From the NCBI RefSeq assembly GCF_965641715.1, contig NZ_OZ282453.1: a stretch of DNA of 64,000 nucleotides. One strand, 5' to 3'. The DNA is from Escherichia coli (GTDB lineage: Bacteria > Pseudomonadota > Gammaproteobacteria > Enterobacterales > Enterobacteriaceae). The position numbers and the translations under genes are program-made. The notes below the pieces were generated by a model, which was not told the origin of the DNA, ran no database searches, and saw nothing but the letters and a program-made list of their open reading frames with translations. Of this stretch, positions 38,382 to 56,093 are shown one piece after another; within the stretch, counting starts at the first letter, position 1, and the number at the start of each line of letters is the position of its first letter.

Positions 38382-38395
38382 CGTATTTCTCCTGA

Positions 38396-39082
38396 TTAGA
38401 AGTTCAGATTTTTCAGTGCATTCAGTGCAGAGCCCACATCCTCAGCGTCGCGCAGGGACAGTGCGCCATAGCCCCCGGCCATGAATGCTTTGGCCTGGGT
38501 ACGGGAGAGTCCGACATCACGCAGGACTCTTTCGATTTTTTTCTGTTCGGGGATTTCCCCGCGGGCCAGCGCGTTCTTGACGTCGCTGATCCGCGCCTCG
38601 TCGTTAGACGGAAACGTCACCAGACTGACTTCCCAGAGGTCGATTTCTTTCAGCAGAAAGGCTTCTTTCGTCCGGTCGTATTCCCAGTCCTTCAGGACGT
38701 ACCCAATAGAAAGGCCGGTTAACGAACCGGCCTTCATGTGTGCATGTGCGCGTTTTGCCAGGGGATCATCATCAATGAGCAACCGCCCCCTGACGTAAAG
38801 CCCGACATCGTCTTCCTTCATTTCGGTGTAAACACCGATGGGCTCATCCATGCGGTGCTGCCAGAGCAGCGCAGGCAACGCTTTTCTGTCACTCCACGCC
38901 CGCAGGGAAGCAGCAAATGCCCCGGACATCACCACATCATCGTGACTGTCCTTTACACCAAAGACGGAGCCATATCCTTCAAACTCACCGGAGTCACTGA
39001 CAGATTTCAGACTCAGCGGTACATCAAGACGTTGTTTCGTCTGCATTGGCGTTATCCTTCTGCTTACCGGCTTTACTGCCAT
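38396..39082 (-). CDS. Prohead protease, HK97 family
   Basis: 228 aa; GEFEGYGSVFGVKD...MSGAF motif region. Confidence 0.85.
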   Translation of the reverse strand: MAVKPVSRRITPMQTKQRLDVPLSLKSVSDSGEFEGYGSVFGVKDSHDDVVMSGAFAASLRAWSDRKALPALLWQHRMDEPIGVYTEMKEDDVGLYVRGRLLIDDDPLAKRAHAHMKAGSLTGLSIGYVLKDWEYDRTKEAFLLKEIDLWEVSLVTFPSNDEARISDVKNALARGEIPEQKKIERVLRDVGLSRTQAKAFMAGGYGALSLRDAEDVGSALNALKNLNF

Positions 39083-40265
39083 CGGAGGGTTTCGTGGTCA
39101 TGTTCATCGGTGTGAGATAGACATCACCACCGGGACGCGGATTCATATCTTCCAGGTCACGGCAGTCATTGGGAGAGTAAATTCCCCAGTTAATCCCGGT
39201 GGCGTAGGCTTCAAAACGGGACTTCATATCCCCGCGCAGTAACGCCCCGGCGTTAAATTTGGCGTAATAAACGCCCTGCTTACTTTTTCGTACCAGTCCG
39301 GTGTTGATCCGCTGTTCGATGCGGGTCAGATACGGCACCAGTGAATAGTTGATAAATCCGAGCCCCAGTTCTTCGATATTGTTGAAGGTGGCGCGATCGG
39401 TGTTCTGTACCATGTGCAACGGCACCCGGAACAAACGACAGATTTCTTCAAGCTGAAACTTGCGGGTTTCCAGGAACTGGCTGTCCTCGGCGTTCAGCGC
39501 CATCGACTTCCAGTCCAGCCCCATCTCAAGGATCATCGGGCGGTGAGCATTGCCAAGCCCGGTGTGGCGCTCCTCAAAATCTTTCTTCAGGCGCTCATAA
39601 GCCTGATCCGACAGCGTCTGCTCTGTACGCAATACACCCGACGTCACCGCGCCATTGCTGAACAGTCTGGCCCCGTGCTCTTCGGTCGCTGCCGCCAGCG
39701 ATATTGCCTCGCGGGCATAGGCGATGGGATTCAGTCCCACCAGGCCGTCCAGCGTCAGCGTGCGCACATGCCAGATATCCTCCTGGGTCAGCACATCCGT
39801 GGAGCCGTCCGGGAATGTGACCTGATAGACCGGCTCCCAGCTACTGTTAAGCTTCGGTACCACACAGCCAGGATCGACGGGCAGCAGTTCAGCCACTTCG
39901 CCAAATGCTTTCACTTTGTAGGCGTAAAAGTTCCCCCTCAGGCACAGACAGGTGACCACCAGCTCCCAGAACTCCTGCGGCGTCATATATCCATTGGGAT
40001 GCGTGGAGATCAGCTTATGCAGACGTTCGCCGGTGGCTCTCTGTTTCAGGCTGCCGTTCAGGTGATACAGATTGCAGGGCAACATCCCGACCGACTCTGC
40101 CAGCACCCTGACGCAGGAAAAAACCGCCGTCAGTCGCATGGCCCGCTGGCTGCTGATCTGCTTTCCGGTATAGGTGTCGTATGACAGCCCGATAGCATCT
40201 GCCAGCTCTGCTGGCGTGGTCACCGGCGCGTCACTTTTTCGTTGAAATAATCCCGAAAAGAACAC
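39024..40265 (-). CDS. Portal protein, HK97 family
   Basis: 413 aa; LEEICRLFRVPLHMV motif region. Confidence 0.85.
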   Translation of the reverse strand: MFFSGLFQRKSDAPVTTPAELADAIGLSYDTYTGKQISSQRAMRLTAVFSCVRVLAESVGMLPCNLYHLNGSLKQRATGERLHKLISTHPNGYMTPQEFWELVVTCLCLRGNFYAYKVKAFGEVAELLPVDPGCVVPKLNSSWEPVYQVTFPDGSTDVLTQEDIWHVRTLTLDGLVGLNPIAYAREAISLAAATEEHGARLFSNGAVTSGVLRTEQTLSDQAYERLKKDFEERHTGLGNAHRPMILEMGLDWKSMALNAEDSQFLETRKFQLEEICRLFRVPLHMVQNTDRATFNNIEELGLGFINYSLVPYLTRIEQRINTGLVRKSKQGVYYAKFNAGALLRGDMKSRFEAYATGINWGIYSPNDCRDLEDMNPRPGGDVYLTPMNMTTKPSDGSKAGKQKDNANADETTS

Positions 40266-40458: not shown

Positions 40459-41195
40459 TTAAAGCGAGCGGATGCCCACGCTGACCAGATGTTCAGACAG
40501 ATCCGGCTCCGGTTCACCACCATTGACCAGCATCCGGCTCATTGCTGTAAACATCGCAACAGGGCCGTCGATTTTGGCTTCCAGCGTGGATTTATTCGGG
40601 AAGATATTGTCGTTTTTGTCCGGTTTTACCGTAACGTTAGACATCATCCAGTTCATGACCGGATGATTGCTGTGATGGAAACGCCCGGCATAGACCAGTG
40701 ATTCCGTTTCCTTCATGGCCTCTGACAGATTGCGAACCGTCTGCGGAACCTCCACCAGCGGTATCCCTTCTTCAGCCAGTGCCAGGCTGAACTGCATCGC
40801 GCTCCACGGGTCAAATCCCAGCTCCCTGAGGTTTTCACCACCAATCCATTCCAGTAAGTCACTTTTTATCTGAGCATGATCGATAACATCACCATCCGTC
40901 AGAATCAGCTTATCCATCTCCGCCCACTTCCGGTAAAGTTCTGCCTGCTGCCGCGAGCATCGTTCCAGCCGTCCTTCCGGAAGCCAGAATTTAAAATCGG
41001 CATGAACATGCCCGTTATCCGTTCGCCAGAGTTTTGCCGCCGCACAGATATCAATCTTATGAGCAAGGTCAACGCCGACCCACATGGGATACGTTTTCAG
41101 CTCATGTCGTGGGGCAATGTATTCGCACTTCTCCCACTTAATCATGTCCATCCAGGCAGACTCTGCTGTTACCCACACATTCATGTGTTTTGTGA
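40459..41195 (-). pseudogene. Prophage terminase large subunit, C-terminal fragment, separated from its N-terminal part by the satellite insertion
   Basis: 241-aa ORF MNVWVTAESAWMDMIKWEKC... aligns residue-for-residue with the middle of the satellite TerL (NIWCQGATPWMGNGAWAEC...). Confidence 0.8.
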
Positions 41196-41270
41196 GAATA
41201 TTTCAAGTTTTTTAAAATCACCTGTATATCAATCATTTAAAATGAAAAAACAGTCTTTATAAATCATCGA

Positions 41271-41292
41271 GCAATACACAGCGCAATACACG
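41271..41292. repeat. Tandem GCAATACACAG / CGCAATACACG motif near the satellite left end; candidate integrase arm site
   Basis: Same motif occurs as a tandem pair at 56094-56116 beside the int start. Confidence 0.45.
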
Positions 41293-41479
41293 TATCTGTA
41301 TTGTTTTAATGCTGATACACACCGTTTTTTGATACAGTGATTCGACCTACCATCGCGAAGCATTTTTTATTTCTTGTGTGTAACAATCTGACGAGGTGAG
41401 CACTCAAAGAGATAAGAGGCAGTAGAAATTTCGATCCCCCCCCTGAATGCAATTTTTCGTATATATATATACAAAACAG

Positions 41480-41636
41480 TGCGGGTTATGCGGGTTAGCG
41501 GGTTATCTTCGCGTGCTAAGTATTTTTTACTCTTTAATATCAATACGTTAAAAAACAACGTATCTAAATATCAGCCAGAATGTAACCCGCAAGACATTCA
41601 AAATAACCCGCAAACACCACTCAAATAACCCGCAAA
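41480..41636. repeat. Iteron cluster B: three direct TGCGGGTTAT-like copies and three inverted ATAACCCGCAA copies around an AT-rich spacer
   Basis: Direct copies at 41480-41508; inverted at 41582-41591, 41603-41613, 41626-41636; same consensus as cluster A. Confidence 0.6.
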
Positions 41637-41714
41637 AACATCCCTGAAAGTGGGTGCCGATAATACTGAAAATTTATTCCATTAAATGAGCATTGTCCTC
41701 TCTCATCCATTCCG

Positions 41715-43376
41715 TTACACACCATCAAACGTCGCAAGCCGCTCTTTGTGGCTGTCGCTCATATCGAATGCAAATTCCTCATGCTCTGCCTGGAATGTGC
41801 CAAACGCCATCAGCGCCGCAACGCTCGGGTCTATCTTGTTGGATGATTTTTTCTTGTTCGGCTTGATATTGGCGTTCGCGTCACTCTGCATCACAACATT
41901 ACTCATTGACCAGGCCAGCACCGGATCACCACGATGCACAATCACCTTCCGGTTAACAAAAACTTCGAACGATTTCGCCGCCGGACTGAAACGAAGGTAC
42001 GTTTGCGGGAACGGCTCCACCTCAAATCCCGCCCCCTGTAGCTGTGTTCTCAGGTGAGTGGCGTTCCATGTATCGAAGCCCACCAGCCTGATACTGAAAT
42101 TCTCTGCATCCACCATGATGTCATCACGGATACGGTCATAATCAATGCAGTCACCCGGTGTTGTGCGTATCCAGCCCGCCTTTACCCACTGGCGATAAAT
42201 GGCGCGGTTTTTATTGGCGGGGTTCTGTAACTGAAATTCCGGCAGATAGTGACGGGAAACCAGCATAATCTTTTTACCGACCGGAAAGGCATAGCACACG
42301 CTGGAAATATCGCTGGTTGATGATAAGTCCAGCCCCACGTAGCACTCCTGCCCGTATAAATCCGCCTCCGCGAACGTTCCGGCGCACTCCGCCCATGCAC
42401 CGTTACCCATCCACGGCGTAGCCCCCTGACACCAGATATTGAATCGCTTGGTGAGCATTTCCACCCACTGCGACGGAATACCCCGCGCTTTCTGGATGGT
42501 TGAGGCCAGTTTTTCACGATCGACGGAAACATCGATATTGGGATTCGCCTTTATCCACATCGCCGGATCGTCAACCTCGCTTTCATCATCCAGCTCGTAA
42601 ATCAGTACGAACATGGATTCGTTCACCTCTTCACCATCCAGTATCTGGCAGCAATAGTCGTAGTGTTGTTTACAGGCTGAAACAACGTTGCTCCCCGATG
42701 TGGTGATGGCAAATAATAACCCCTCCGGACGCGCCCCCATTCCCAGTTCAAGCGCGGAATAAACCCCGTTGTCAGGGTGCAGGTGATATTCATCTACAAT
42801 GGCAAGACTCGGGTTTGTACCTTCAATGGTTGCCGCTTTTGCTGCCAGTGGCTTTAACAGGCTGTTGGTTTTCGGGTGTATCACCTTGTGTGCCTGAATA
42901 TTTACCCGCTTTCGTAACGGTCGGGATAAAAGGCACATCTGACGCGCATCATCAAACACGATCCGCGCCTGATCACGACTCACGGCGGCGGTGTAAATAT
43001 CCTGCTGCCCGTTTTCCATAACCAGAAACCAGTTAGCCAGGATAGCGGCGACCGTGGATTTGGCATTTTTTCGCGGTACTTCAATGAATGCGCTGGTGTA
43101 TTTGCGCCGTCCGGTGGCCTTAACCTTAAAGCCCAGGATGCACGCAAAGGCGAACTGCTGCCACGGCTCCAGCTCAATGGGGCTACCGCGCATTGCGCCT
43201 TTTACGTGCGGACACACCCTGGAAAAGGCAATAAACTGCTCCACGACCTCCGGATCGAACGTGTAAAGGGGGTTTTCAAGGTCAGAAAAATACCGTTTAA
43301 CGGCCTGTTTCAGTCGTTTACAGGCCGTAATTTTGCCGTTTTTTACGCCTTCTGCGTACTCATGCCAGGCGGTCAA
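41715..43376 (-). CDS. Terminase large subunit (satellite copy, intact)
   Basis: 553 aa; ATPase and nuclease regions; homologous to but diverged from the interrupted prophage TerL. Confidence 0.9.
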   Translation of the reverse strand: MTAWHEYAEGVKNGKITACKRLKQAVKRYFSDLENPLYTFDPEVVEQFIAFSRVCPHVKGAMRGSPIELEPWQQFAFACILGFKVKATGRRKYTSAFIEVPRKNAKSTVAAILANWFLVMENGQQDIYTAAVSRDQARIVFDDARQMCLLSRPLRKRVNIQAHKVIHPKTNSLLKPLAAKAATIEGTNPSLAIVDEYHLHPDNGVYSALELGMGARPEGLLFAITTSGSNVVSACKQHYDYCCQILDGEEVNESMFVLIYELDDESEVDDPAMWIKANPNIDVSVDREKLASTIQKARGIPSQWVEMLTKRFNIWCQGATPWMGNGAWAECAGTFAEADLYGQECYVGLDLSSTSDISSVCYAFPVGKKIMLVSRHYLPEFQLQNPANKNRAIYRQWVKAGWIRTTPGDCIDYDRIRDDIMVDAENFSIRLVGFDTWNATHLRTQLQGAGFEVEPFPQTYLRFSPAAKSFEVFVNRKVIVHRGDPVLAWSMSNVVMQSDANANIKPNKKKSSNKIDPSVAALMAFGTFQAEHEEFAFDMSDSHKERLATFDGV

Positions 43377-43716
43377 GCTCGTCCTCTTCCTCTGTTTCCG
43401 GTGGATTTCTGCGGCGACTTACCGGGTCAAAACCCAGCAAAGAAGCCATTTTGATCATTATTCTTTCAGCGTCAGCCTTTGCGCTCAGGGCGGGGTTTCT
43501 GCTCTCGCTGCCCTGACTGTTAACAATGCTGAACCCGCGCGTGGCAAGGTCTTCGACGGCTTTGCGGTATATGGAGTAGTTAACGCAATACAGCTCCAGA
43601 TTGCTCCAGTCGGCGGGGGTAAGGTCTTCCCGTCCGGAAAGCTGGCGCGATTTTTCCTTCCACTGCCTGACCGCGATTTCATCCAGGTAAGCGGGGGCTT
43701 TTGGTGGTCTTGCCAT
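43360..43716 (-). CDS. Terminase small subunit, P27-like (satellite copy)
   Basis: ORF 43360-43857; likely start MARPPKAPAYLDEIAVRQWKEK; homologous to prophage TerS at 57273-57755. Confidence 0.75.
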   Translation of the reverse strand: MARPPKAPAYLDEIAVRQWKEKSRQLSGREDLTPADWSNLELYCVNYSIYRKAVEDLATRGFSIVNSQGSESRNPALSAKADAERIMIKMASLLGFDPVSRRRNPPETEEEDELDRLA

Positions 43717-43814
43717 GTTCTTTTTTCGCCCAATTATTTTCAAAAAAATTCCCGTGCACAAAAATTTGAGGAGGCGGTCGGTGTCCGGCAGGGACGGTTT
43801 TGTCCTGAAAACCT

Positions 43815-43825
43815 CCCCCCCCCCC
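43815..43825. repeat. Homopolymeric C11 tract between satellite HNH and terS
   Basis: Counted directly: 11 consecutive C on the plus strand, about 100 bp upstream of the terS start. Confidence 0.6.
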
Positions 43826-43835
43826 TCTGACGGCC

Positions 43836-44021
43836 TCACCAGCGATTGCGAAAACATTCCATGACCTCGCGGTCACGGTCGGTTAATCGCTTCGCTGTGG
43901 TGCGTTCTGTGCGCCCTGTCCTGTTGGCTTTGTGCCCTGTCTCCTGTGTCTTCCATAAGTCACGCTGCCTTATCAGTCCACGTATCAGCCTGTTTTGCTC
44001 CTGTTCAGTCATCATCGCCAT
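43836..44021 (-). CDS. Small hypothetical ORF between HNH and terS
   Basis: About 61 aa MAMMTEQEQNRLIRGLIRQRDLW...; basic protein; may not be expressed. Confidence 0.25.
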   Translation of the reverse strand: MAMMTEQEQNRLIRGLIRQRDLWKTQETGHKANRTGRTERTTAKRLTDRDREVMECFRNRW

Positions 44022-44445
44022 ACATCCAGTCGTTACGGTGTGCCGCCCGTTCTTCCTGCTCGCGATACATACCCGCCTTACGGTTCGCTTTCGTGGCTGG
44101 ATCTTCCCGTGTTGTCTTACGGTTATGGCACGTCTGGCACAATGCCTGGTGGTTCCACTCAGGCCAGAAGAGAACATCACCGCCGCCATTGATGGGAATG
44201 ATGTGATCCACCACAAGAGCTGGCGTATAAATCCCCTTAGCCAGACAACGCACGCATAACGGATTTTTGCTCAGGTACAGGGCGCGGTATTTGTCCCACT
44301 GTCGGGAATACCCGCGCGCGCGGCGGTGTCCCCGTCTGGCATCCTCTGCACGCCATGCAGCCCGCCTGTGATCTTCGCACTTGCCGGACTTCACGCGCTT
44401 ATTACAGCCCGGCTCAGTGCATCGCCTTAATGGTTGCCACGGCAT
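44005..44445 (-). CDS. HNH endonuclease (packaging-associated, satellite copy)
   Basis: 146 aa; Cys-rich HNH core VDHIIPINGGGD...CQTCHNRKT; sits next to terS. Confidence 0.85.
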   Translation of the reverse strand: MPWQPLRRCTEPGCNKRVKSGKCEDHRRAAWRAEDARRGHRRARGYSRQWDKYRALYLSKNPLCVRCLAKGIYTPALVVDHIIPINGGGDVLFWPEWNHQALCQTCHNRKTTREDPATKANRKAGMYREQEERAAHRNDWMYGDDD

Positions 44446-44744
44446 CAGTACACCCCTACATCACGATAAACCGACCAGAGCGCAGAAATAGCCATAGGCA
44501 GTTCAGACTGCTCCACAGGTGAAACCGCTTCCCTGTTCTCGTACAGGAAAGCGATGTACATCAGGCAACCAACACGTATTGCCGGGGTAAATTCCAGCCC
44601 GTCTTCAAAACGTTTCCCGATATGCTTCTGGCAGGCTTCCAGCGCCGCATCGGTATACATTTTCAGAAGTTCGCCCTCACCTGAGAAGTCATCAAGGCGA
44701 AGATGTGCCCTGACTTCATCAGGTGTAATTTTTTCTTCACTCAT
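44445..44744 (-). CDS. gp6-like head-tail connector protein (satellite copy)
   Basis: ORF 44445-44825; likely start MSEEKITPDEVRAHLRLDDFSGEGELLKMYTDAALEA. Confidence 0.6.
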   Translation of the reverse strand: MSEEKITPDEVRAHLRLDDFSGEGELLKMYTDAALEACQKHIGKRFEDGLEFTPAIRVGCLMYIAFLYENREAVSPVEQSELPMAISALWSVYRDVGVY

Positions 44745-46041
44745 CTTTTTCACCTTTAATTTCCACCGTCTGCTTCCATGCCTGGCTGAACTCGTCACCA
44801 CCTTCACGCGGCGGCATCCCCTCACGTTCGCGGGCTTCGTTCGGATTCATGATCCCGTTCTTAATCCCTTTCTCATACGTGGCGTAACGCTCGGTTGGAG
44901 TAGCGCGCAGTAAATCGGCTGAATCAAACTCAACCAGATAACGGGTACCAGGTATGGGAGAAGCCACCAGCAAAGCGGCCTTAATTTGCTGTTCGAAGTT
45001 CGCCAGCCATGGGCGCATTGTCATGGTCAGAAACGCGCGGCTTGCCTCACTGAAATTGCTGTAGGTGCTGTTGCTGTATTCCTGAAGAAAAATCGGCGAC
45101 ACGTTGAACATCCGGGCGATGTCTTCAATGGAGAAGCGACGGGAGGCCAGCCATTCTGCATCCTGGTTACTCATCCCCAGTTGCTTGTAATCCATACCCC
45201 CTTCAAGGATTGGCGTTTTTCCGGCATTTTTCGCCCCCTTGTAGCGTTCCAGGGCGTCTAATGCCTGTTTACCTTTCACGCCGTCCAGCCATTCGCCTGA
45301 CGTGATAATCCCTGCCGCCATCATGCCATCTTTCATAATGCTGGCTCCGTGACGCTGTTGAGCAAGGCCAAGCCCCAGCGCCTCACGGCAAATCGTGACA
45401 GGGGAGCGCCCCAGAAAGCCATCATCCGAGGCATAGCGGAGATGCAGAACTTCTTCCTGCAAATACGTGCGCACCGTTCCTGTATAGGGTTCGGTGATGG
45501 TATAGCGGTATTTGTGTGCGCCAGTGCGTTCCGGTACAACACACCCCGGCGCATAAGGATGAAGTGATTTTGGCTGACCGTCCCGCCCCCACTCAATAAC
45601 CGCATAGGCGTTACCGTTCAGCAGGCAGTGACGCATCATTGTGCGTTTAAACTGGTAAGGTGTCTGGCACGAATTAGGCTGCTCATTCAGCAGAATATCG
45701 ACCGGGTGACTGTCCAGCCATTCCCGCGCCTCCCTGCCCTTGTCATTGCGTACCAGATACAGATAACACGGCATCGTGGCCACCGCCTCAGCGATGACAG
45801 AAACCGCGTTCATCACAGCAGGCAATGATTCAGCCGTCCCGGCAGAAACATATTCTCCGGATCCGGTATTCGGTACGCCGGACAGCGCCAGAAAATCATC
45901 AATGGACAGGTTACGCAGATCGCTTTTTTTACGACTAAAAGGCCACCACATATCACAACCCCGCCAGTTCAGCCCAGCGATGACGATTATTTCCTGTCGG
46001 GCGTAATTCAGGGTGCTGTGCAAACAACGAACGGTGGGCAA
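44737..46041 (-). CDS. Portal protein, HK97 family (satellite copy)
   Basis: 434-aa ORF; FSIEDIARMFNVSPIFL region; true start may be MWWPF near 45951. Confidence 0.85.
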   Translation of the reverse strand: MPTVRCLHSTLNYARQEIIVIAGLNWRGCDMWWPFSRKKSDLRNLSIDDFLALSGVPNTGSGEYVSAGTAESLPAVMNAVSVIAEAVATMPCYLYLVRNDKGREAREWLDSHPVDILLNEQPNSCQTPYQFKRTMMRHCLLNGNAYAVIEWGRDGQPKSLHPYAPGCVVPERTGAHKYRYTITEPYTGTVRTYLQEEVLHLRYASDDGFLGRSPVTICREALGLGLAQQRHGASIMKDGMMAAGIITSGEWLDGVKGKQALDALERYKGAKNAGKTPILEGGMDYKQLGMSNQDAEWLASRRFSIEDIARMFNVSPIFLQEYSNSTYSNFSEASRAFLTMTMRPWLANFEQQIKAALLVASPIPGTRYLVEFDSADLLRATPTERYATYEKGIKNGIMNPNEAREREGMPPREGGDEFSQAWKQTVEIKGEKDE

Positions 46042-46513
46042 TCTCCACGCCGGATTCGGGATAAGCAGGCATCGACGTTATCGTGATTTCACGGAGTTCT
46101 GCGGCGGTAACAGTGCGCAGATACGGTTTTTGCGCGATATTCCACTCTTCGCATAATGCGCGAAAGCCAAAGCTCATTCCTGTAATGTCGCCACGCTCCA
46201 CCAGCGTAAGCACATCTTTTCCAAGCTGGGTATCAGGCGGTGTCAGTTCAAAACGTAGCCCGGTGTTGTCCTCAGTCAGTACCAGTGTTCCGGATTTGGT
46301 GCGCCCCAGCAGTCGGGTATAGTCATGCTCATACAGGCAGCGCACATCATTACCCGCCGCCAGATAGTCAGCAAAAGCCCCCGGCGTGAACTGTTCGCGG
46401 AATTCGTCCCAGATAATTTCTGAAAGGCTGTTCCAGCGAACGGCATACCCCACCAGCTTTTTATTGCTGGCGGTCAGTTCAGATGTGCGGATTTCAAAAT
46501 CGGTGTTTTTCAT
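45953..46513 (-). CDS. Prohead protease, HK97 family (satellite copy)
   Basis: 186 aa; VGYAVRWNSLSE...FTPGAF motif region. Confidence 0.85.
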   Translation of the reverse strand: MKNTDFEIRTSELTASNKKLVGYAVRWNSLSEIIWDEFREQFTPGAFADYLAAGNDVRCLYEHDYTRLLGRTKSGTLVLTEDNTGLRFELTPPDTQLGKDVLTLVERGDITGMSFGFRALCEEWNIAQKPYLRTVTAAELREITITSMPAYPESGVEIAHRSLFAQHPELRPTGNNRHRWAELAGL

Positions 46514-46567
46514 CGGTGTACTCCATAAAGCTGAAAAAGGAGGCCGCAGCCTCCTCCTTACTCATGA

Positions 46568-47737
46568 CTAGCCAGCTTTCATTTCCAGAATTTTGATGGC
46601 GTTTGAATCCACCACACCACCGCCCAGATATTTATCCGTGTGGACCTTGTAGAATCCGGGCTCAGTAATGTTGTCCGGTCGGGTGCGAATCCCTGTTACA
46701 TGATCAACGATGAAATAACCACGACTGAAATCGCCAACCGCTAGCGGTGCTTTTCCTGCGCCGATGTCCGGCATGGACTCCAGGCAGAAAACAGGACGAC
46801 CAAGCAACATATCCGGCGCACCTTCTTTAAGGCTGTCGCGCCAGATATAATCGCCATTCTCATTTTTCAGCTTCTGTAGTGTCCCTGCCGTGCCCGAGTT
46901 CATCACCCAGACGGCATTTTTGCGGTATTTCGCTTTCAGCTTGTAGAGAATGTCGATCAGTTCGTCCGCTGTAATGGCGGTTCCACTTGCCGCTACCACT
47001 TTTTCAATGGTGCCAAAAGCGCGGGTTTTGTCACTGGTCGCCGCACGGGTGTAAGCCATGAAGCCTTTCGGCTTGCCGTTACCGTCGCCATTAACAAAAT
47101 CATCCTCTTCGGTGCTGGCGAACGTGTCGGCAATTTCGGAGGATAACCAGCCCAGAATATCCACCTCTGAAAAATCCAGGATTTCCTGCGTGGTTTTCGG
47201 GTAGGCGTAGATCGGATTCAGCTTGATGGTTACACGTTCAATTTTCGGGGTGTTGGTTTCACTACGTGCGCAGCCTTCTGTGCCTCGTCCTACAGTTGCG
47301 CCGCCAGTGGAAACCAGTTTCTGAAACTCATTTGATTTTGCGGTCTTCACGGTCGCGATCACGCGCATAACACTGTCATCCTGTAGCTGGCGCATGACTT
47401 CGCGATCAAGCTCAGGAATTACGGTATATCCGCCATCCCTGCCGCTGTCAGTGCTGGTGGACAGTGATCGCACATCTCCGGTTACGATGTAGTTACGCAA
47501 TTCATCAGATGATAATTTCTGGATGCCCGTTCCTGGCTTGCTGCGTTCTTCATCAGCCACAGACTCGAGGCGGTAAATTTCTGTGTCGAGGGAATCGGCT
47601 TTTGCACGCAGTTCATCAAACTGTTTGCCCTCGTCATCGTTCAGGCTGCGGTTTTCACTGTCGGCTTTTTCCAGCAGGGATCGCATCTGGTTTTTCAGGG
47701 CGGTTTTTTGCTGGCGGAGTTCGATTAATTTCTTCAT
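46568..47737 (-). CDS. Major capsid protein, HK97 family (satellite copy)
   Basis: 389 aa; coiled-coil delta domain; GDGNGKPKGF motif; diverged from prophage copy. Confidence 0.9.
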   Translation of the reverse strand: MKKLIELRQQKTALKNQMRSLLEKADSENRSLNDDEGKQFDELRAKADSLDTEIYRLESVADEERSKPGTGIQKLSSDELRNYIVTGDVRSLSTSTDSGRDGGYTVIPELDREVMRQLQDDSVMRVIATVKTAKSNEFQKLVSTGGATVGRGTEGCARSETNTPKIERVTIKLNPIYAYPKTTQEILDFSEVDILGWLSSEIADTFASTEEDDFVNGDGNGKPKGFMAYTRAATSDKTRAFGTIEKVVAASGTAITADELIDILYKLKAKYRKNAVWVMNSGTAGTLQKLKNENGDYIWRDSLKEGAPDMLLGRPVFCLESMPDIGAGKAPLAVGDFSRGYFIVDHVTGIRTRPDNITEPGFYKVHTDKYLGGGVVDSNAIKILEMKAG

Positions 47738-47973
47738 GAAGGTTTTCTCGTATTGGTTAAGATTCAGGACGTGAAACCAACACGGAGGGAGCGCCGCCCG
47801 ACACTCTCGGCATCTCGCAGATCAACCCGGCATCGCGCAGGGGGTCAGGCGGCATTGTGGCGGCTCACGTCTGAGTGCCACACGCCAACATATACATAAA
47901 AATCAGTATGTAAACATCAGCCAGAATCACCGAACAACCTGGAACAACCACGAACAAATAATTTACAAAACCT

Positions 47974-48000
47974 GAAAAAAAGACCTGGAGAAAATCCAGG
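47974..48000 (-). terminator. Rho-independent terminator separating the satellite replication block from its capsid operon
   Basis: Hairpin CCTGGA-gaaaa-TCCAGG followed on the minus strand by TCTTTTTTT; lies between the 82-aa ORF and the capsid gene. Confidence 0.5.
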
Positions 48001-48011
48001 CCTTTATCGCT

Positions 48012-48260
48012 TTATTGTTTCACTGGATCCCGCATTCTGCGTCTTATTTTCCACAGATATTCGATCATCGCTTCCACCTGCTCACGATTGGTTGCGAAAA
48101 TTTCCCCGGTCAGTGAGCTGCGCAGAAAATCATGATGATCCACAACAAACAACGCATCGGAAGAAAGCAGACGGCGATATTTTTTTGCTGTCGTGGTTTC
48201 CAGATCATCAAAACCATGAAACTTTTTATGTTGCTGGACTTCTTCAAATGTCACTGGCAT
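48012..48260 (-). CDS. Hypothetical small protein
   Basis: 82-aa ORF MPVTFEEVQQHKKFHGFDDLETT... Confidence 0.4.
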   Translation of the reverse strand: MPVTFEEVQQHKKFHGFDDLETTTAKKYRRLLSSDALFVVDHHDFLRSSLTGEIFATNREQVEAMIEYLWKIRRRMRDPVKQ

Positions 48261-48793
48261 GTATCCCCCTTTGCCGCCCGGCGCTGGCGCTTGTGCTTCT
48301 CATTCAGCGCCATCAGCCGCGTTTCTGCCTCCTGCTGTTCCTGTGGTGTCACTTCCCCACATGGCTGGCCTTTCAGGTCGTATCGTACCCCACCAGCAAC
48401 CAGGGCGCGGTAATAGCGCGGAGACTGCGCATAAGATGCCAGCGTCGCACGTAATGCCCCCGGCCCGAATGCCAGCCCCCTGACGGCGAGATCCTGCATC
48501 AGGTCGTCGAATATCCCCACCTTAAGCGGCTTCGGTGCTTCCCTGTTGAATAAGTCAGGCCACATCTCAGTGAGGCGGTTAACGCGCCTGCGGTTTTTGC
48601 GCTGGCGTTTGGTCATATGCCGCCACGGTGTCACCCCTGTGGGCTGCCCTTTGCGGCTCTGCTGTGCGTTCTGATTGCCGGGTATCACTTTATGCGCCGA
48701 TGTGGTTTTATCCCGCTCTTGCGCCGCCTGCGTCGTTTTCTGCGGCGTGCCGTAAATGCCTTTCGGTTTTCGGTTAATGGTCAGCTTTGTCAT
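48251..48793 (-). CDS. FinO/ProQ-domain RNA-binding protein (putative)
   Basis: 180 aa; PLKVGIFDDLMQDL...RATLASYAQSPRYYRALVAGGVRYDLKGQPCGEVT matches the ProQ/FinO N-domain pattern from memory. Confidence 0.55.
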   Translation of the reverse strand: MTKLTINRKPKGIYGTPQKTTQAAQERDKTTSAHKVIPGNQNAQQSRKGQPTGVTPWRHMTKRQRKNRRRVNRLTEMWPDLFNREAPKPLKVGIFDDLMQDLAVRGLAFGPGALRATLASYAQSPRYYRALVAGGVRYDLKGQPCGEVTPQEQQEAETRLMALNEKHKRQRRAAKGDTCQ

Positions 48794-48957
48794 GCCTTCC
48801 CCTGTAATTACTCTGTTCGCTGTTGTGAATTAAAACGGTATGTTATCCCCGTACAGGTCATCGTGCTGGCCTGTCTGTTGTTTTGCCCTGTTCAGTGCGT
48901 CAGTGGCCTGCCCCTGTTGGCCTTTTTTGCCGCCCGGTCGCGCCGTTCTCGCACTGA

Positions 48958-49254
48958 TTACGCTGTCTGCGATGACCTGCCAGCCCTGCCGCGTTTCGCC
49001 GTTCTGCCCTGTCCACTGCTTACCTGCATGTTACCCGCCACGCTCACCAGTTCGCCTTTGCGGTGTTTTGCCAGTGCGTCGGCCTGTCTGCCAAACGCCA
49101 GGACGGATAACCACATCGTCGCCGTTCCGTCATCTGCCTGGCTGCATGGCAGGGGAACCGCCATACTCGCCATCGCCATTTGTGTTCCCTTGCTGGTGGT
49201 CTTTAACTGCGGGTCAGCCACCAGCCGCCCGTAAGCCGCTATCTGTGCTGTCAT
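48958..49254 (-). CDS. SSB-like OB-fold protein (short)
   Basis: 98 aa; GRLVADPQLKTTSKGTQMAMASMAV...WLSVLAFGRQADALAKHRKGELVSVAGNMQ follows the SSB OB-fold pattern. Confidence 0.4.
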   Translation of the reverse strand: MTAQIAAYGRLVADPQLKTTSKGTQMAMASMAVPLPCSQADDGTATMWLSVLAFGRQADALAKHRKGELVSVAGNMQVSSGQGRTAKRGRAGRSSQTA

Positions 49255-49317
49255 GCTGTCTGCTCTCCGGTTTTAACGTTGATGGTTACGCTTGTTTACA
49301 CCCTTACGGTGAAATTC

Positions 49318-49442
49318 TGCGGGTTATAATCGCACTTTTGCGGGTTATAACTGCCGTTTTGCGGGTTACGTGCGGGTTATTGATTTCCTTTTTATTCATA
49401 CAGTTAATGCACTTATATACATGATAACCCGCATAACCCGCA
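49318..49442. repeat. Iteron cluster A (candidate satellite replication origin): four direct TGCGGGTTAT-like copies, an AT-rich spacer, two inverted copies
   Basis: Direct copies at 49318, 49339, 49359, 49371; inverted ATAACCCGCATAACCCGCAA at 49423-49442; immediately 3' of the primase gene. Confidence 0.65.
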
Positions 49443-49464
49443 ACTTTTCACCTCACACAGGGGG

Positions 49465-51588
49465 TTAATCTTCTGCCTCAGGCTGGAACATCAGCACGTA
49501 AAAAACATGCTGCTTCCCCCCAATTTTGCCGAGCGCCTTTTTCTTGTAACGGCGATCGTTACCCGCTTCCAGCATTCCGGCAGCACTCAACGCGCGGGCA
49601 AAGTGAGACGGATTAAATCCCTGTGCTATCTCACCCTCAAATACATGCGGGAACGTGTAAAAACGGAACTCGTCATCTTCGTTTCTGATACTCCCCTTTC
49701 TGTATCCGGCAAGTTCTTTAATCGATAAATCACGCTCGTCGGTATTGGGCCACGGAAGGTATCTGCTGAATCCGAACGACGCTAAAAAAGCTTCTGCCTG
49801 TTCAACCATCTGTTTAAATTCCCTGTTACCCGTGCCGAACTCCTTCACCCAGGCATTAAAATTATGCTGTATGGCATCGCGGCATTCCTGCTCATCCCAG
49901 CCAGTAACATGACCTGAAAGCACAAGCGCGGCCTCCAGTATGGCAAATCGCTCCCCCACACGGTGAACCTGTTCGCCGTAGCTCTCCGGTATCAGGTTGC
50001 GCCACCGCTCACGGCATGTCCTTACCGTGTCCTTTGCCTCCTGCTGGTGTTCTGCCAGCCATTTAACCCACTCACGACCCGCCGCCCCGTGATTTTCTGT
50101 CCAGGCATCCTTTAACGCGTCTGCGTGCGCCTTTCCGGTGCTGTATTCGTGAAATTGCGTGGCTTTTTCCATCGGAACGTTAAGCAGGCGGACAAGCTGC
50201 CCCGCTTTGACTTTTATCCCCTCCGTTTTGAGGAATGTCTCAACGTCCATTTCTCCGGTGCTGATTGCCACCGTGCGCCAGTGTTTGATCTCCCTGTTGC
50301 CGCCGTCCTTCGCCCCCTGTAATTTCCCCGAACCGTTAAACAGCGTATAGGCTGACGTGGACACCTCCCGCGCGTTTCCGGCCTGGCCTATTTCATCCAG
50401 GGGTAAAAGCCCGTCATTGTGTGCCTCTGCTTCGTTGGCGATACCTAACGCTGTGCCGTACCAGGTCAGCCGCTGCGCGTCCGGCTCTCCCCATAAACTT
50501 GATGCGATGTTCTGTGTGGTGGTTTTCCCTGCCGATGACTGTTCGAAAAGATGTACCCCGAAGCCGTCAGCGCCCACCAGCCCGATTAATGGTGCGGATA
50601 ACGATACCGCCACACCCAGCATCATGGACGGATTACCACCAGCCAGCCGCGCAACGGTATCGCGCCAGCCCTCCGCCGTTCCTGCCACGGAATAGCCATT
50701 AACAGCAGCCGTTTTTCCGGTAAACAGGACTGGCTTTTCGCAATCACCAATGACCGAACCGTCCGGCATGATGTACGCGCCAAAATGCCAGCCCGTTGTT
50801 GTGCTTAACTGCCATTCCTCATGGCTTCCGCTTAACTGCATCCAGTCAGCCAGGATAGCCCTGTATTTACCGTTGGTTGTTACGTTCAGTCCGTGGTCTT
50901 TCAGCAACCGCCAGCCGTCACGGTCGCCAATGCCACCGCACGGAACCGCCATTGTGATGACTTCATGGTTTGCTAATTTTTTCCAGCGCATCACGCGGTA
51001 ATGCTCTTTACCGATTGTCCCCGTTCCCAGTAGTTCAAGCGGGGAACATAACCACGTCTCAGGCCGGATAATTTCGCCTGACTGCTTATCCACTTTTGGC
51101 GTTACCCAGAAAACACCATCGGCGCGACTTTCAACGCGGGGCTTTAATTCATCATCGCCCTGGATTTCTGTGATTTTTTTCTTTAAGGGCAACACCAGAC
51201 TTTCCCCGCGCTCGTATTCGTCTTTGAGGCGAGGCAACTGGTCGGATAAATCCGCCGGGCTGATGTCAGTTATCCCCGCGTATTCGTATACGGTCTTCAC
51301 GCCAGCCACAGCCAGCAACGTGACGATCTGTGTAAGGCTACGTTCAGTGATGTGCCCTGCGCGGTAAACACGCACACACTGACGGCTATCATCAATAATT
51401 TGATAACCGGTAATATCTTTCAGGTGTTCATCTGACAGAACGACAGGCGGCACATTGTCGGCGGCAATATGCTTACCTGCCCATTCCTGCCACTCTTTCG
51501 CATGGCTCCACGCATCACTACCCGCAAAGATGATAACCTCCGTCATTTTGTCGGCTGGCTGGTGCTTTAAGTTTGGTGCGCGCTTCAT
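49465..51588 (-). CDS. Replication primase/helicase with P-loop NTPase
   Basis: 707 aa; Walker A-like SSAGKTT; largest non-structural gene; adjacent to iterons. Confidence 0.75.
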   Translation of the reverse strand: MKRAPNLKHQPADKMTEVIIFAGSDAWSHAKEWQEWAGKHIAADNVPPVVLSDEHLKDITGYQIIDDSRQCVRVYRAGHITERSLTQIVTLLAVAGVKTVYEYAGITDISPADLSDQLPRLKDEYERGESLVLPLKKKITEIQGDDELKPRVESRADGVFWVTPKVDKQSGEIIRPETWLCSPLELLGTGTIGKEHYRVMRWKKLANHEVITMAVPCGGIGDRDGWRLLKDHGLNVTTNGKYRAILADWMQLSGSHEEWQLSTTTGWHFGAYIMPDGSVIGDCEKPVLFTGKTAAVNGYSVAGTAEGWRDTVARLAGGNPSMMLGVAVSLSAPLIGLVGADGFGVHLFEQSSAGKTTTQNIASSLWGEPDAQRLTWYGTALGIANEAEAHNDGLLPLDEIGQAGNAREVSTSAYTLFNGSGKLQGAKDGGNREIKHWRTVAISTGEMDVETFLKTEGIKVKAGQLVRLLNVPMEKATQFHEYSTGKAHADALKDAWTENHGAAGREWVKWLAEHQQEAKDTVRTCRERWRNLIPESYGEQVHRVGERFAILEAALVLSGHVTGWDEQECRDAIQHNFNAWVKEFGTGNREFKQMVEQAEAFLASFGFSRYLPWPNTDERDLSIKELAGYRKGSIRNEDDEFRFYTFPHVFEGEIAQGFNPSHFARALSAAGMLEAGNDRRYKKKALGKIGGKQHVFYVLMFQPEAED

Positions 51589-51899
51589 TTTGCCTTTCCC
51601 CGTTCACGAATAATTTCACGTACTGCCTTAATGCGTTCCATTCCTGTAACGCGCATGATTCTGTCGATGTCGCTTAATTCTGCTGGTGGTGCTTTACTTA
51701 CCAAGGTGAACTCCCTGTCAAAGCGCATATGTGACGACACGCAGGGATGCGCATAACCTTCGCGGATATAGGTCACACGAAAATCATCGACGGTTTTGAT
51801 CGTTATCGTGCTGCCGTATTTATCCTGGAAAATATCGCCGGGGCGGATTTCAGGCCGAGCGGGGCCGCTGGCAGTAAAGCCAGAATTTTTCTTTTTCAT
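51585..51899 (-). CDS. Hypothetical protein
   Basis: 104-aa ORF directly upstream of and overlapping the primase start. Confidence 0.45.
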   Translation of the reverse strand: MKKKNSGFTASGPARPEIRPGDIFQDKYGSTITIKTVDDFRVTYIREGYAHPCVSSHMRFDREFTLVSKAPPAELSDIDRIMRVTGMERIKAVREIIRERGKAK

Positions 51900-51904
51900 G
51901 TTTT

Positions 51905-52153
51905 TTACTCCAGAGGCAGCTTTTTAGCGGCGAGCTCAATATCAGATGTCAGAGAAACCTGTGTATTTGCCAGGTCTAACAACAAAGAAATAAGAATTTC
52001 TTCTCTGCTATCGGATTTATCGGTGCTAAGGCTGTTCATCCACATATTGACGACTTCCCTGATTTTTTTCGCAGAGTGCAGGGCTTCAAATGCCAGGTCT
52101 TCAATATCATGTTTATTTCGCATAATCGCCCCCGCCATTTTCACAATCAGCAA
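51905..52153 (-). CDS. Hypothetical small protein
   Basis: 82-aa ORF. Confidence 0.35.
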   Translation of the reverse strand: MLIVKMAGAIMRNKHDIEDLAFEALHSAKKIREVVNMWMNSLSTDKSDSREEILISLLLDLANTQVSLTSDIELAAKKLPLE

Positions 52154-52358
52154 TCAGGATGGCTTTTGCCTCATTCAGCGCCATATCAGCACTAAATTGC
52201 ATAACAGCCAGTGAGTGAGGAACGAAAGCCCCGGCATATTCTGTTTCGCTGGTGGCGTGCTTATGCGCCTTGTCTGCGATAACAGAAATATCAATCAGCG
52301 CGTGCATCAGCGTTTTGATGGCTTCGGCGGCTGCGTCCGGACGGGTGTTATTGCACAT
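52113..52358 (-). CDS. Hypothetical small protein
   Basis: 81-aa ORF. Confidence 0.35.
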   Translation of the reverse strand: MCNNTRPDAAAEAIKTLMHALIDISVIADKAHKHATSETEYAGAFVPHSLAVMQFSADMALNEAKAILIADCENGGGDYAK

Positions 52359-52554
52359 GGCGCACCTCCTGACGAATACGGGCAGCGAATACCATCACGC
52401 AGCCAGCCGGGGATTGCTGGCGTGCTTCCTGTTCGCTAGTGGCCTCAATGGTAATCACACGCGGTTGTGCCGTGCTCAGGGCGATAAAACGCCAGATGTA
52501 TTTATTCAGGTTGTGCGAGTCCCGCCCTTGCGGGTGTGTGGTATGATTTAACAT
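52348..52554 (-). CDS. Small Icd-like protein (putative host cell division inhibitor family)
   Basis: ATG at 52554 with GAGGT ribosome-binding site 7 nt upstream; 68 aa ending ...SEQEARQQ...FAARIRQEVRHVQ; family assignment is from memory. Confidence 0.45.
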   Translation of the reverse strand: MLNHTTHPQGRDSHNLNKYIWRFIALSTAQPRVITIEATSEQEARQQSPAGCVMVFAARIRQEVRHVQ

Positions 52555-52750
52555 AGCTACCTCGATAATCTTGCTATCGTTGGTGGTTAGAAGCCCGGTT
52601 AGTGTTAGCGCACTGCCGGGTTTCGTCGTTTGTATTTCAATAAAACCATTGGTGTGTTTCATGTTATTTTGGAGTGAAACACACGTCAAGCCTTTTTTGT
52701 ATTTCTTTTTTGTGTATACTGAAACACACCAAATTTGAGGAGTTTCAGTT

Positions 52751-53056
52751 ATGGCGACTACCAACAAAAACGCTAAATCACAATTGACCACCGTCAGAGT
52801 CCCCCACGATGTTATGGAGGGCATGGAATCCGTAAAACTGGACGGCGAAAGCAACGCCGGATTCATAGTAACCGCCATGCGCGGTGAGATCGCCCGCCGC
52901 CAGGCAGAAGGAAGCGGAGAAAATCCCCTGGTTTCTTCGCTCGATGCACTGGCGCAGGTGGAAAAAATTGGAGTCAAGGCTGCCGAGGAGATCGGGCAAC
53001 TCGTCACCGTCGCGCGTGAAGAACTCCAGCGACGCAAGGTCAAAGAGCAGGAATAG
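52751..53056 (+). CDS. Putative transcriptional regulator, divergently transcribed
   Basis: ATG at 52751 with GAGGA ribosome-binding site 9 nt upstream; 101 aa; only confident plus-strand gene in the satellite. Confidence 0.55.
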   Translation: MATTNKNAKSQLTTVRVPHDVMEGMESVKLDGESNAGFIVTAMRGEIARRQAEGSGENPLVSSLDALAQVEKIGVKAAEEIGQLVTVAREELQRRKVKEQE

Positions 53057-53113
53057 CCACTATCAGCGCCATAGTTTGAGGAACGCAGGCGCATTGCTTT
53101 ACAGGACAGCACC

Positions 53114-53293
53114 ATGAGCGACACAGAATCAACCAAAACACCATCACCAACTCGTAAGAGACGACGCAAAAATATAGCGCATGAACATGAATCAGAAAGA
53201 TTCGCACCTTGTTCGTTTGCTCTTGAGAAATTCCTTAAAGAGCACAGGAAAAAGCTCTCGTTGCAAACCTTGGAACGAACCAAATCTGACTGA
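53114..53293 (+). CDS. Small basic protein (possible)
   Basis: 59-aa ORF MSDTESTKTPSPTRKRRRKN... below the ORF-track cutoff; followed by terminators. Confidence 0.3.
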   Translation: MSDTESTKTPSPTRKRRRKNIAHEHESERFAPCSFALEKFLKEHRKKLSLQTLERTKSD

Positions 53294-53358
53294 TCACATT
53301 GCCCACCAGCCGCAAATGTGGCATTGTTGGTGATGCTTTTGTTTTCCCTTGTTCCCAC

Positions 53359-53388
53359 TGGCGACCCTTTTGCGGTCGCCTTTGTTTT
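53359..53388 (+). terminator. Rho-independent terminator of the plus-strand cassette
   Basis: Hairpin GGCGACC-cttttgc-GGTCGCC followed by TTTGTTTTG; a second hairpin plus T-run at about 53484-53515. Confidence 0.45.
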
Positions 53389-53673
53389 GCCTGTTATCCG
53401 GCAATAGTGGCGCTTCGTCACCTGTCTGATATAATTCCACAGCTTATATTCATTTTTTGCGCAGTAGGTTAATTGTTCGCAAGGGCGCTCCGGCAACGGG
53501 GCGCTTTTTGTTTTTACCCACCAGCACAATAAAAATCTTCATTTTCCATTTTTGTAAAATTTCATGCTTTCCGGACGACTGGTCATATGTCATTTTTTAG
53601 CAGAAGATTTTGCCTTGCTGGTGGGTAGCTTCCCGGTCAACACGATGTACCGTATAATCAACACCGCGTGTGG

Positions 53674-54252: not shown

Positions 54253-54309
54253 TGCTTTTTACCTCACATACAAAAAACCCCGCATTGCGTGGTGCGGGGT
54301 TGTCGGTAA

Positions 54310-54588: not shown

Positions 54589-54651
54589 AAAAATATCACC
54601 TATAAAAAAACCCGCCAAAAGACGGGTTGATTATATCTCATTTAATTTAGC

Positions 54652-54822: not shown

Positions 54823-54850
54823 GTCGATTGTTTCATCATTTTCAAGTTCT

Positions 54851-56074: not shown

Positions 56075-56093
56075 GTGATTTATAACCCGTTTT

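Follow-up and report, generated by a model that had tools for sequence, protein, structure and literature searches.

The late genes of a satellite element in Escherichia coli run on the minus strand from major capsid to large terminase, whereas in HK97-like phages the terminase genes come first. Is this order a rearrangement of one genome, or the layout of a family of elements? In the 64,000-nucleotide stretch of contig NZ_OZ282453.1 (assembly GCF_965641715.1) analysed here, hereafter the window, we place the probability at about 0.9 that these genes are the late operon of a Gammaproteobacterial cf-PICI (a capsid-forming PICI, a kind of phage satellite), that their order was not rearranged locally but is the layout conserved in the family, and that the element is nested in the terL gene of a prophage.

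A satellite within a prophage terL gene

The satellite extends over about 41189-56252 (15.06 kb; 15,057 bp between att cores) and is a precise, co-oriented insertion that splits terL in an HK97-like lambdoid prophage. The boundaries of the satellite were set by rejoining the split terL reading frame. The prophage and attachment features are:

37176-40265, minus strand: prophage portal (39024-40265), protease (38396-39046) and capsid (37176-38381), in canonical phage order
40459-41188, minus strand: C-terminal fragment of prophage terL (phrog_2699, 5.3e-85)
41189-41195, minus strand: attR core TCACAAA, satellite end
41271-41291, minus strand: doubled motif GTGTATTGCgCTGTGTATTGC, upstream attP arm, matching the HE-PICI motif
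56095-56115, minus strand: doubled motif GTGTATTGCaCTGTGTATTGC, downstream attP arm
56246-56252, minus strand: attL core TCACAAA, satellite start
56253-57273, minus strand: N-terminal fragment of prophage terL (same layout annotated in a relative)
57273-58254, minus strand: prophage HNH (57904-58254), G-rich intergenic region and TerS (57273-57755), upstream of the satellite

Joined at TCACAAA, the flanks yield an 800-nt sequence that matches intact terL in four genomes at 100% identity, and the rejoined gene is an ORF of 585 aa; in 905 genomes the joined-flank terL sequence reaches a coverage of at least 80%. Scanning the element ends for long direct repeats returned only the 11-nt arm motif. 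The doubled motif tgTGTATTGCantgTGTATTGCa flanks the attP centre on both sides, its copies standing 212 nt apart once attP is reconstructed, compared with 213 published; Tommasini, Mageeney and Williams 2023 (PMC10111431) place the copies 81 and 132 bp from the attP centre. Over long stretches the flanks are also identical to the attL and attR of A_Terminase_1_246 given in the supplement of that study. In its flanks, att sequences and doubled TGTATTGC, the satellite matches the helper-embedded PICI group A:Terminase_1:246. Like members of this group, it disrupts a prophage terL in the same orientation as the late genes and brings along no sequence to replace what it disrupts; here too the two copies of the doubled TGTATTGC are spaced as published, and the attL and attR flanks match. 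The founding example, 11capE, differs in being 11 kb long, in lacking terS and in its presumed use of helper packaging machinery, whereas the present satellite has a full cf-PICI packaging module. No discussion of late-gene order was found in PMC10111431.

The attR core agrees with the earlier note, which had put an attachment site after TerL. The same note had described a prophage copy of the head genes 4 kb away; it turns out that this is not a separate copy, because the satellite sits within the prophage set, with HNH, TerS and the N-terminal part of TerL upstream and the C-terminal part of TerL, portal, protease and capsid downstream. The location of the attachment site inside the prophage terL was absent from that account. 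An amber codon lies in the tape-measure gene of the resident helper prophage, which therefore may not supply tails.

Outside the late operon, the element holds a PICI core and two iteron clusters:

41481-41633, no strand assigned: second GCGGGTTAY iteron cluster, beside an AT-rich run, between terL and attR
49319-49441, no strand assigned: first iteron cluster (GCGGGTTAY six times), directly past the primase gene
49465-51588, minus strand: DUF927 primase/helicase of the replication module (relative's annotation and profile match)
54652-54885, minus strand: AlpA-family regulator/excisionase (Pfam Phage_AlpA, 2.4e-9)
54851-56074, minus strand: tyrosine integrase (relative's annotation and a general tyrosine-integrase match)

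The core of integrase, AlpA and primase is complete and co-directional, in an element within the cf-PICI size range of about 10-18 kb. Between the att sites, neither the ORFs nor a close relative's annotation revealed tail or lysis genes. GCGGGTTAY occurs 14 times in the window against 0.69 expected, and the first cluster is likely the origin of replication. Satellite P4 has ori plus crr, two separated iteron clusters, and the present satellite likewise has a single iteron grouped into two clusters that lie apart: the first adjoins the primase gene, the second is several kilobases away. P4 differs in iteron sequence and primase family, and the function of the iterons here is putative.

Two readings would deny the element its identity. 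TerS and TerL (41715-43857) occupy the place, just ahead of the portal, protease and capsid genes of the prophage, where phage terminases would be expected, and could be taken as prophage genes, with a satellite reaching only from capsid to HNH and a prophage order left unbroken. Att mapping has already refuted this, since attR lies downstream of the 553-aa TerL; moreover, the prophage has its own TerS and a split terL whose rejoined 585-aa ORF is identical to intact genes, and TerS and TerL come after HNH in all cf-PICI loci, among them the ones at fis and hpt, near which no prophage lies. We give this reading practically no credence. Only slightly less improbable is a prophage, decayed or hybrid, in place of a satellite: complete phage-type head and terminase genes do adjoin prophage genes, and Alqurainy et al. 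initially considered a PICI-phage hybrid for such elements. However, the integrase-AlpA-primase core and precise att sites, a target site that is empty in 905 genomes, and the lack of tail and lysis genes all speak against decay, as do a capsid 58-77% identical to those of small elements and at most 37% identical to that of any phage, and a size and gene content constant over many genera.

The late operon and its family

The late operon runs capsid-protease-portal-connector-HNH-61-aa ORF-TerS-TerL on the minus strand, from 47737 to 41715, and its genes are co-directional and mostly overlapping. PHROG profile matches identified all eight genes as the earlier note had named them and bear out the minus-strand order it gave:

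46568-47737, minus strand: major capsid/major head protein, 389 aa, first late-operon gene (phrog_10, 3.6e-90)
45953-46513, minus strand: prohead (HK97-type)/head maturation protease (phrog_80, 7.6e-60)
44737-45951, minus strand: portal (phrog_12, 1.1e-118), starting 1 nt past the protease stop
44445-44744, minus strand: head-tail connector/adaptor of Ad1 type (phrog_40, 1.1e-28; NCBIfam TIGR01560)
44005-44445, minus strand: HNH endonuclease of the packaging machinery (phrog_144, 1e-44)
43836-44021, minus strand: small conserved ORF, 61 aa (phrog_3173, 2.7e-28), found in many related loci
43360-43716, minus strand: small terminase TerS, P27 family (phrog_83, 1.3e-38; relative's annotation)
41715-43376, minus strand: large terminase TerL, 553 aa (phrog_9, 5.7e-180)

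Thus capsid, protease, portal, TerS, TerL and HNH are all the satellite's own (PHROG matches of 1e-38 to 1e-180). The HK97-like HNH/cos phages (the prophage in the window, ST64B and the helper phage HK106) share the protein family of each head and packaging gene with the satellite, and in phages and satellite alike HNH directly precedes a G-rich non-coding site followed by terS and terL. Satellite and HK97-like prophage proteins are 27-41% identical (36% for the capsids; 32% for the satellite TerL and the reconstructed prophage TerL). The phage order is TerS-TerL-portal-protease-capsid-Ad1-Hc and then tails, whereas the satellite has capsid-protease-portal-(Hc)-Ad1 before HNH and no tails. The arrangement of TerS, TerL, portal, protease and capsid ahead of tail genes is absent from the satellite and present in the prophage once the satellite is removed.

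The satellite order is anything but a product of chance: among related loci it is found in all 59 that hold all seven core genes, in many genera of Enterobacterales, Pasteurellales and Orbales. Two 'phage' records of about 16 kb, Pasteurella 'phage' Pmp8 and vB_KppS-Ant, have the identical order, as have E. coli cf-PICIs integrated at fis or hpt. The satellite capsid is 58-77% identical to capsids of other small elements, compared with at most 37% for any phage; the nearest true phages, such as ST64B and the prophage in the window, have the order TerS-TerL-portal-protease-capsid. Size and gene content are kept across many genera among the related elements. The order is also in print: Alqurainy et al. 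(bioRxiv 10.1101/2022.09.08.507074) report that Proteobacterial cf-PICIs conserve capsid-protease-portal-connectors followed by hnh-terS-terL, He et al. also state the cf-PICI order, and de Sousa et al. call the organisation 'very conserved'. The earlier description of the order as non-canonical therefore holds against HK97-like phages but not for the element family, in which it is standard. The earlier note had itself named a standard family order as what would refute novelty, and comparison with annotated cf-PICIs found exactly that: the gene order is a published family trait, already known and ordinary for cf-PICIs.

The closest known systems are cf-PICIs of the EcCIEDL933 type, which like the satellite are about 15 kb long, have an integrase-alpA-primase core without tail or lysis genes, and carry the same head and packaging set in exactly the published order (the prototype order being taken from the text of the paper). 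Going by an inferred position and the same text, the 61-aa ORF is possibly the counterpart of EcCIEDL933 'gene 1792'. In other retrieved cf-PICI-like records, late-module DNA is about 75% identical to that of the satellite, and a small 'phage' fragment from an O157 host matched cf-PICIs of other strains, not EDL933. Unlike the EcCIEDL933 type, which has a chromosomal site, this satellite lies in a prophage gene. It also differs in having only one of the two head-tail genes expected of a cf-PICI, the Ad1-type connector: a comparison of the portal-to-Ad1 gap across loci found that the head-closure/adaptor gene usually located there is absent, and the portal and Ad1 genes overlap. This absence does not exclude membership, because the definition of Alqurainy et al. 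(bioRxiv 10.1101/2022.09.08.507074) admits 'all, or most' components and de Sousa et al. found elements with 10 of 11 components to be common; by our assignment the satellite would be a 10/11-component 'Type B' cfPICI in the sense of de Sousa et al. Lacking a gene present in most cf-PICIs, it may not be self-sufficient in head completion.

Putative cos site, promoter and leader

Four non-coding features accompany the operon:

43717-43835, minus strand: putative cos, a conserved block of non-coding DNA that holds a G-run and T-runs and separates the small ORF from terS
47735-47884, minus strand: conserved structured 5' leader with hairpins P1, P2 and P3, ending at the capsid ATG
47887-47914, minus strand: sigma-70-like promoter candidate TTTACA-16-TATGTT, the region of the second hexamer being conserved in the alignment
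47975-48005, minus strand: intrinsic terminator (hairpin and U7; -15.9 kcal/mol, z -3.5) between the replication/accessory genes and the late operon

Across genera the first block is 68% conserved, and a sub-block 84%, against 52% for neighbouring coding sequence; the linear record of vB_KppS-Ant ends within the same block. From these sequence data cos likely lies in the gap between the small ORF and terS. The conserved gap and the vB_KppS-Ant break therefore suggest that HNH-cos-TerS-TerL is the usual HNH/cos arrangement, and lend partial support to the earlier proposal that the order reflects the packaging site.

The promoter candidate is a weak match (9 of 12 positions), and shuffled sequence contains more promoter-like sites than this region does. 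Past the end of terL, the search for intrinsic terminators found none. The capsid leader is conserved with covarying base pairs, and is apparently undescribed so far: an Rfam scan of the satellite matched no leader family, its sole match being sub-threshold and symR-like at 52555-52627. Searches with a covariance model placed the leader once in each element, in Enterobacterales lineages only, with none in Pasteurellaceae, Orbaceae or most Xenorhabdus, nor elsewhere in 1.48 Mb, and blastn against phage records matched cf-PICI-like records only. Hairpin P3 buries a weak ribosome-binding site, and the P1 loop and 3' half (GACGUG) can alternatively pair with CACGUC inside P3. It is conceivable, though we hold it only tentatively, that the roughly 150-nt leader is an undescribed cis-regulatory RNA, a switch that gates the capsid operon until a helper or satellite signal arrives. 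A link to the ProQ/FinO-like gene of the satellite (48251-48793) was considered and dropped, as leader-bearing elements at fis and hpt have no such annotated gene.

Proposed life cycle and possible origins of the order

Under the proposed scheme, the late operon would be read from its own weak promoter through the structured leader, and late transcription from the helper, being terminator-resistant and entering through the split terL, could serve the embedded copy as well. The earlier suggestion that the order may reflect how helper late transcription enters the operon is supported in part: the satellite is co-oriented within the helper late operon, and a terminator, a promoter-like site and a structured leader of its own accompany the capsid operon. 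Helper terL would be restored only upon excision of the satellite. EcCIEDL933 builds small capsids of its own, packages no DNA but its own and depends on the helper for tails alone (Alqurainy et al., bioRxiv 10.1101/2022.09.08.507074); by analogy, the satellite would form small capsids, package only itself and borrow helper tails. Homologues are the source of the predictions that the satellite forms capsids, is cleaved at cos, excises and depends on a helper. The packaged DNA would read cos-terS-terL-attP-int-regulation-replication-capsid...HNH-cos, and the integrated order would be this map opened at attP, just after terL.

A rearrangement peculiar to this genome would account for the contrast between the satellite order and that of ST64B-like phages or of the head module of the prophage in the window, but has hardly any probability and is already refuted, for all 59 complete loci, four reference elements and the literature share the order. 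As to why the order exists, an expression gradient is unlikely, although it has more in its favour: with one promoter-like site and the leader upstream of capsid, a terminator before them, and genes from protease to the small ORF tightly abutting or overlapping, the order would track copies per particle (capsid > protease > portal/connector > HNH/terminase). However, the opposite order in phages serves the same stoichiometry, and the 119-nt cos gap breaks coupling ahead of terS. Less probable again is that the order is the trace of a capture, in which a terL-embedded ancestor excised aberrantly with both flanks to give a circle of replication, head, HNH, cos, terS, terL, att and int. The circular satellite does have that macro-order, and Tommasini et al. 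(PMC10111431) propose late-gene capture by embedded PICIs, with example segments abutting at the integration site. Capture, however, predicts portal-protease-capsid-Ad1-Hc in the head block, whereas the observed order is reversed within each sub-block; it predicts a split terL, whereas the satellite terL is intact; satellite and helper proteins are only 27-41% identical; and the same module is found with fis and hpt integrases.

The reading as a conserved cf-PICI layout restates a published trait, so that the gene order in itself carries little weight and its practical value is correct annotation. The two head and terminase sets in the window are no duplication, the satellite being nested in the terL of its probable helper, where it would keep the prophage from packaging DNA until it leaves. 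The cos-like block and the capsid leader provide concrete sites at which to test how cf-PICIs time, and how they restrict, their own packaging.

Late-gene order in the satellite and its family

The late-gene cluster of the satellite consists of eight same-strand genes on the minus strand (47737-41715), and PHROG profiles agree for all eight with the gene names and order previously read from the sequence.

46568-47737, minus: major head protein (PHROG E 3.6e-90)
45953-46513, minus: head maturation protease (PHROG 7.6e-60)
44737-45951, minus: portal (PHROG 1.1e-118)
44445-44744, minus: head-tail adaptor Ad1 (PHROG 1.1e-28; NCBIfam head-tail connector)
44005-44445, minus: HNH endonuclease (PHROG 1e-44)
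43836-44021, minus: 61-aa ORF of a conserved family without known function (PHROG 2.7e-28)
43360-43716, minus: small terminase (PHROG 1.3e-38)
41715-43376, minus: large terminase (PHROG 5.7e-180)

From the protease to the small ORF, neighboring genes adjoin or share 1-17 nt; gaps follow the capsid gene (54 nt) and precede terS (119 nt). The head-closure/adaptor gene that most cf-PICIs have between portal and Ad1 is absent from this junction (44737-44744), and the same pattern is seen in L001, a close relative, and in loci of Pantoea (L015), Erwinia (L016), Serratia (L017) and Yersinia (L052). According to He et al., tail compatibility is set by the adaptor plus the connector, and thus the adaptor-less satellite may borrow Hc1 (36273-36611) of its helper prophage.

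The earlier note called this gene order non-canonical, which holds in comparison with phages: ST64B, and likewise the prophage in the window, has the order TerS-TerL-portal-protease-capsid-Ad1-Hc. However, it does not hold within the satellite's own family. Alqurainy et al. (bioRxiv 10.1101/2022.09.08.507074) reported a conserved Proteobacterial cf-PICI order of capsid-protease-portal-connectors and then hnh-terS-terL, and noted that the packaging modules of phages and PICIs 'have different genetic organisations'; He et al. used the identical order as a search criterion, and de Sousa et al. described the organization of the cfPICI core components as 'very conserved'. The E. coli cf-PICIs at fis and at hpt, the Pasteurella 'phage' Pmp8 and vB_KppS-Ant (a 16.5-kb record) all exhibit the same late-gene order. 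Scanning a single genome for each species yielded 80 loci from Enterobacterales, Pasteurellales and Orbales, with capsid proteins 58-76% identical; all 59 loci that have the seven core genes are co-linear in the satellite order, and nothing in the truncated loci contradicts it. Capsid identity to the closest true phages is 37% or less. The papers and the 59 loci establish this as the standard order of the element family, the outcome that the earlier note had named as its refutation, one lessening the novelty but leaving the annotation intact. This order is already known as the hallmark of cf-PICIs in Gammaproteobacteria; the observation is accurate but ordinary.

Insertion of the satellite in the prophage terL gene

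The prophage copy of these genes is not a separate locus 4 kb away, as had been stated; the satellite lies inside that prophage, with terL halves on both flanks. On the 3' side of the satellite TerL, a 241-aa ORF matches only the nuclease half, at the C-terminus, of a large terminase (PHROG profile); the prophage portal, protease, capsid and connectors come next, and then a lambda-like tail module. Upstream of the satellite integrase, a large terminase is represented by its N-terminal 340-odd residues, preceded by a P27-family TerS, an HNH gene, lysis genes, tRNAs and a gene that by its position would be a Q-like antiterminator. Rejoining the flanks at the shared TCACAAA core gives a single 585-aa ORF. 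Four E. coli genomes have uninterrupted 'terminase large subunit' genes that match the 800-nt rejoined sequence at 100% identity, and this sequence is covered to at least 80% in 905 genomes; in the close relative NZ_AP042598, a split terL is annotated around the same element. The restored ORF, the identical intact genes and the split terL of the relative thus establish that the element is a precise 15,057-bp insertion within the prophage terL, oriented as the prophage late genes.

56252-56246, minus: attL core TCACAAA, shared core joining the terL flanks
41195-41189, minus: attR core TCACAAA, shared core joining the terL flanks
between the att cores: tyrosine integrase
between the att cores: AlpA-family protein (Pfam Phage_AlpA, 2.4e-9)
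between the att cores: second small helix-turn-helix protein
between the att cores: Bro-N protein and Icd-like protein
between the att cores: DUF927 primase/helicase
between the att cores: SSB
48251-48793, minus: RNA-chaperone-like protein of the ProQ/FinO family, immediately upstream of the late genes
49319-49441: iteron cluster, six GCGGGTTAY copies, just after the primase gene
41481-41633: iteron cluster, five GCGGGTTAY copies and an AT-rich run, between terL and attR

This gene content is that of a capsid-forming PICI, and neither the window ORFs nor the annotation of the close relative include tail or lysis genes between the att cores. No ProQ/FinO-like gene is annotated in the cf-PICIs at fis and hpt. 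The iteron GCGGGTTAY occurs 14 times in the window, against 0.69 expected by chance, and its two-cluster layout resembles the ori/crr pair of satellite P4. In the satellite's regulatory region, opposite the Icd-like gene, the plus strand at 52555-52627 resembles the SymR antitoxin RNA family below threshold (33.6 bits, gathering score 61, E 0.0045).

For head and packaging, satellite and prophage use proteins of the same families, but five pairs are only 27-41% identical and the two proteases gave no BLASTP match; recent duplication is therefore ruled out as the source of the two head/terminase sets.

The position within terL belongs to a published class. Tommasini, Mageeney and Williams (PMC10111431) described a doubled motif, GTGTATTGCnCTGTGTATTGC, unique to helper-embedded PICIs, with one copy 81 bp and the other 132 bp from the attP center, on opposite sides. 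The motif occurs once near each end of the satellite (41291-41271 and 56115-56095), and 212 nt separate the two copies in the reconstructed attP. The flanks match the supplementary attL and attR sequences of their group A_Terminase_1_246, which includes E. coli elements of about 15 kb. As these authors describe, the satellite carries no replacement for the disrupted terL sequence, and the helper gene can be restored only by excision.

Putative packaging site and candidate origins of the order

The small ORF and terS are separated by a 119-nt gap that contains a G-run and T-runs. This gap has 68% mean pairwise identity (84% in a sub-block) among 16 elements of several genera, compared with 52% in the adjoining coding sequence. 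The prophage HNH-terS gap is also G-rich, with a comparable but different sequence. The linear vB_KppS-Ant record starts 22 nt before terS and stops just after the small ORF, lacking about 70 nt of the conserved block, which is how cos-ended DNA would tend to assemble. From these sequences we infer that the satellite cos lies within the gap. HNH-cos-TerS-TerL would then be the normal layout of HNH-dependent cos phages, and opening the packaged map at attP, which directly follows terL, would give the integrated order.

The suggestion that the order reflects the position of the packaging site is thus supported in part. Within the head block, capsid-protease-portal and Hc-Ad1 each run opposite to their phage counterparts with the strand unchanged, so no single inversion explains the head-gene order. 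Two candidate explanations of the order, that a terL-embedded ancestor captured both flanks and that the order forms an expression gradient behind a single promoter, each have evidence against them.

Capsid-operon leader and the helper

47975-48005, minus: intrinsic terminator closing the upstream genes (hairpin -15.9 kcal/mol, z -3.5, then U7)
47914-47887, minus: weak promoter-like site downstream of the terminator
47735-47884, minus: structured leader of about 150 nt, from the promoter-like site to the capsid ATG

Between the terminator and the promoter-like site (47925-47960, minus) are three direct TTGTTC(G/C) repeats spaced 10 nt apart, and a TTTTGTAAATTAT block is conserved at this relative position in other elements; the repeats and block together could form an activator-binding region.

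The leader is kept in 26 cf-PICI loci of Enterobacteriaceae, Erwiniaceae, Yersiniaceae, Hafniaceae and Proteus, and folds into three hairpins (single-sequence predictions; z -2.4 and -4.9). Across an alignment of 19 sequences, every cell of P1 (100%) is paired, and both partners have changed in 3 of its 9 pairs and in 4 of the 5 pairs at the base of P2; no shuffle reached these values, and slid controls were 36-48% paired. P3 is almost invariant, and this predicted hairpin covers a weak ribosome-binding sequence. An alternative helix, pairing the P1 loop and 3' strand with part of P3 (100% paired, one covarying pair), would possibly free the buried site. With a covariance model, each element has a single hit, in every case at the capsid gene, and no further copy turned up in 1.48 Mb; Rfam gave no match. 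The leader is apparently the sole undescribed feature. A cf-PICI capsid gene (77% capsid identity) with the leader also ends the 106.5-kb record of Klebsiella phage P12620-1 (PQ569648.1, approximately 102-106.5 kb), perhaps because the assembly is chimeric or a satellite was co-packaged.

The satellite shares the orientation of the helper late operon that surrounds it, so helper late transcription could also read into it, as Tommasini et al. (PMC10111431) proposed for embedded PICIs. The helper tape-measure gene (30757-34110, minus) has an in-frame amber TAG at 32164-32166, where L001 has CAG. This prophage may make no tails, and in that case prophage and satellite would both be stranded.
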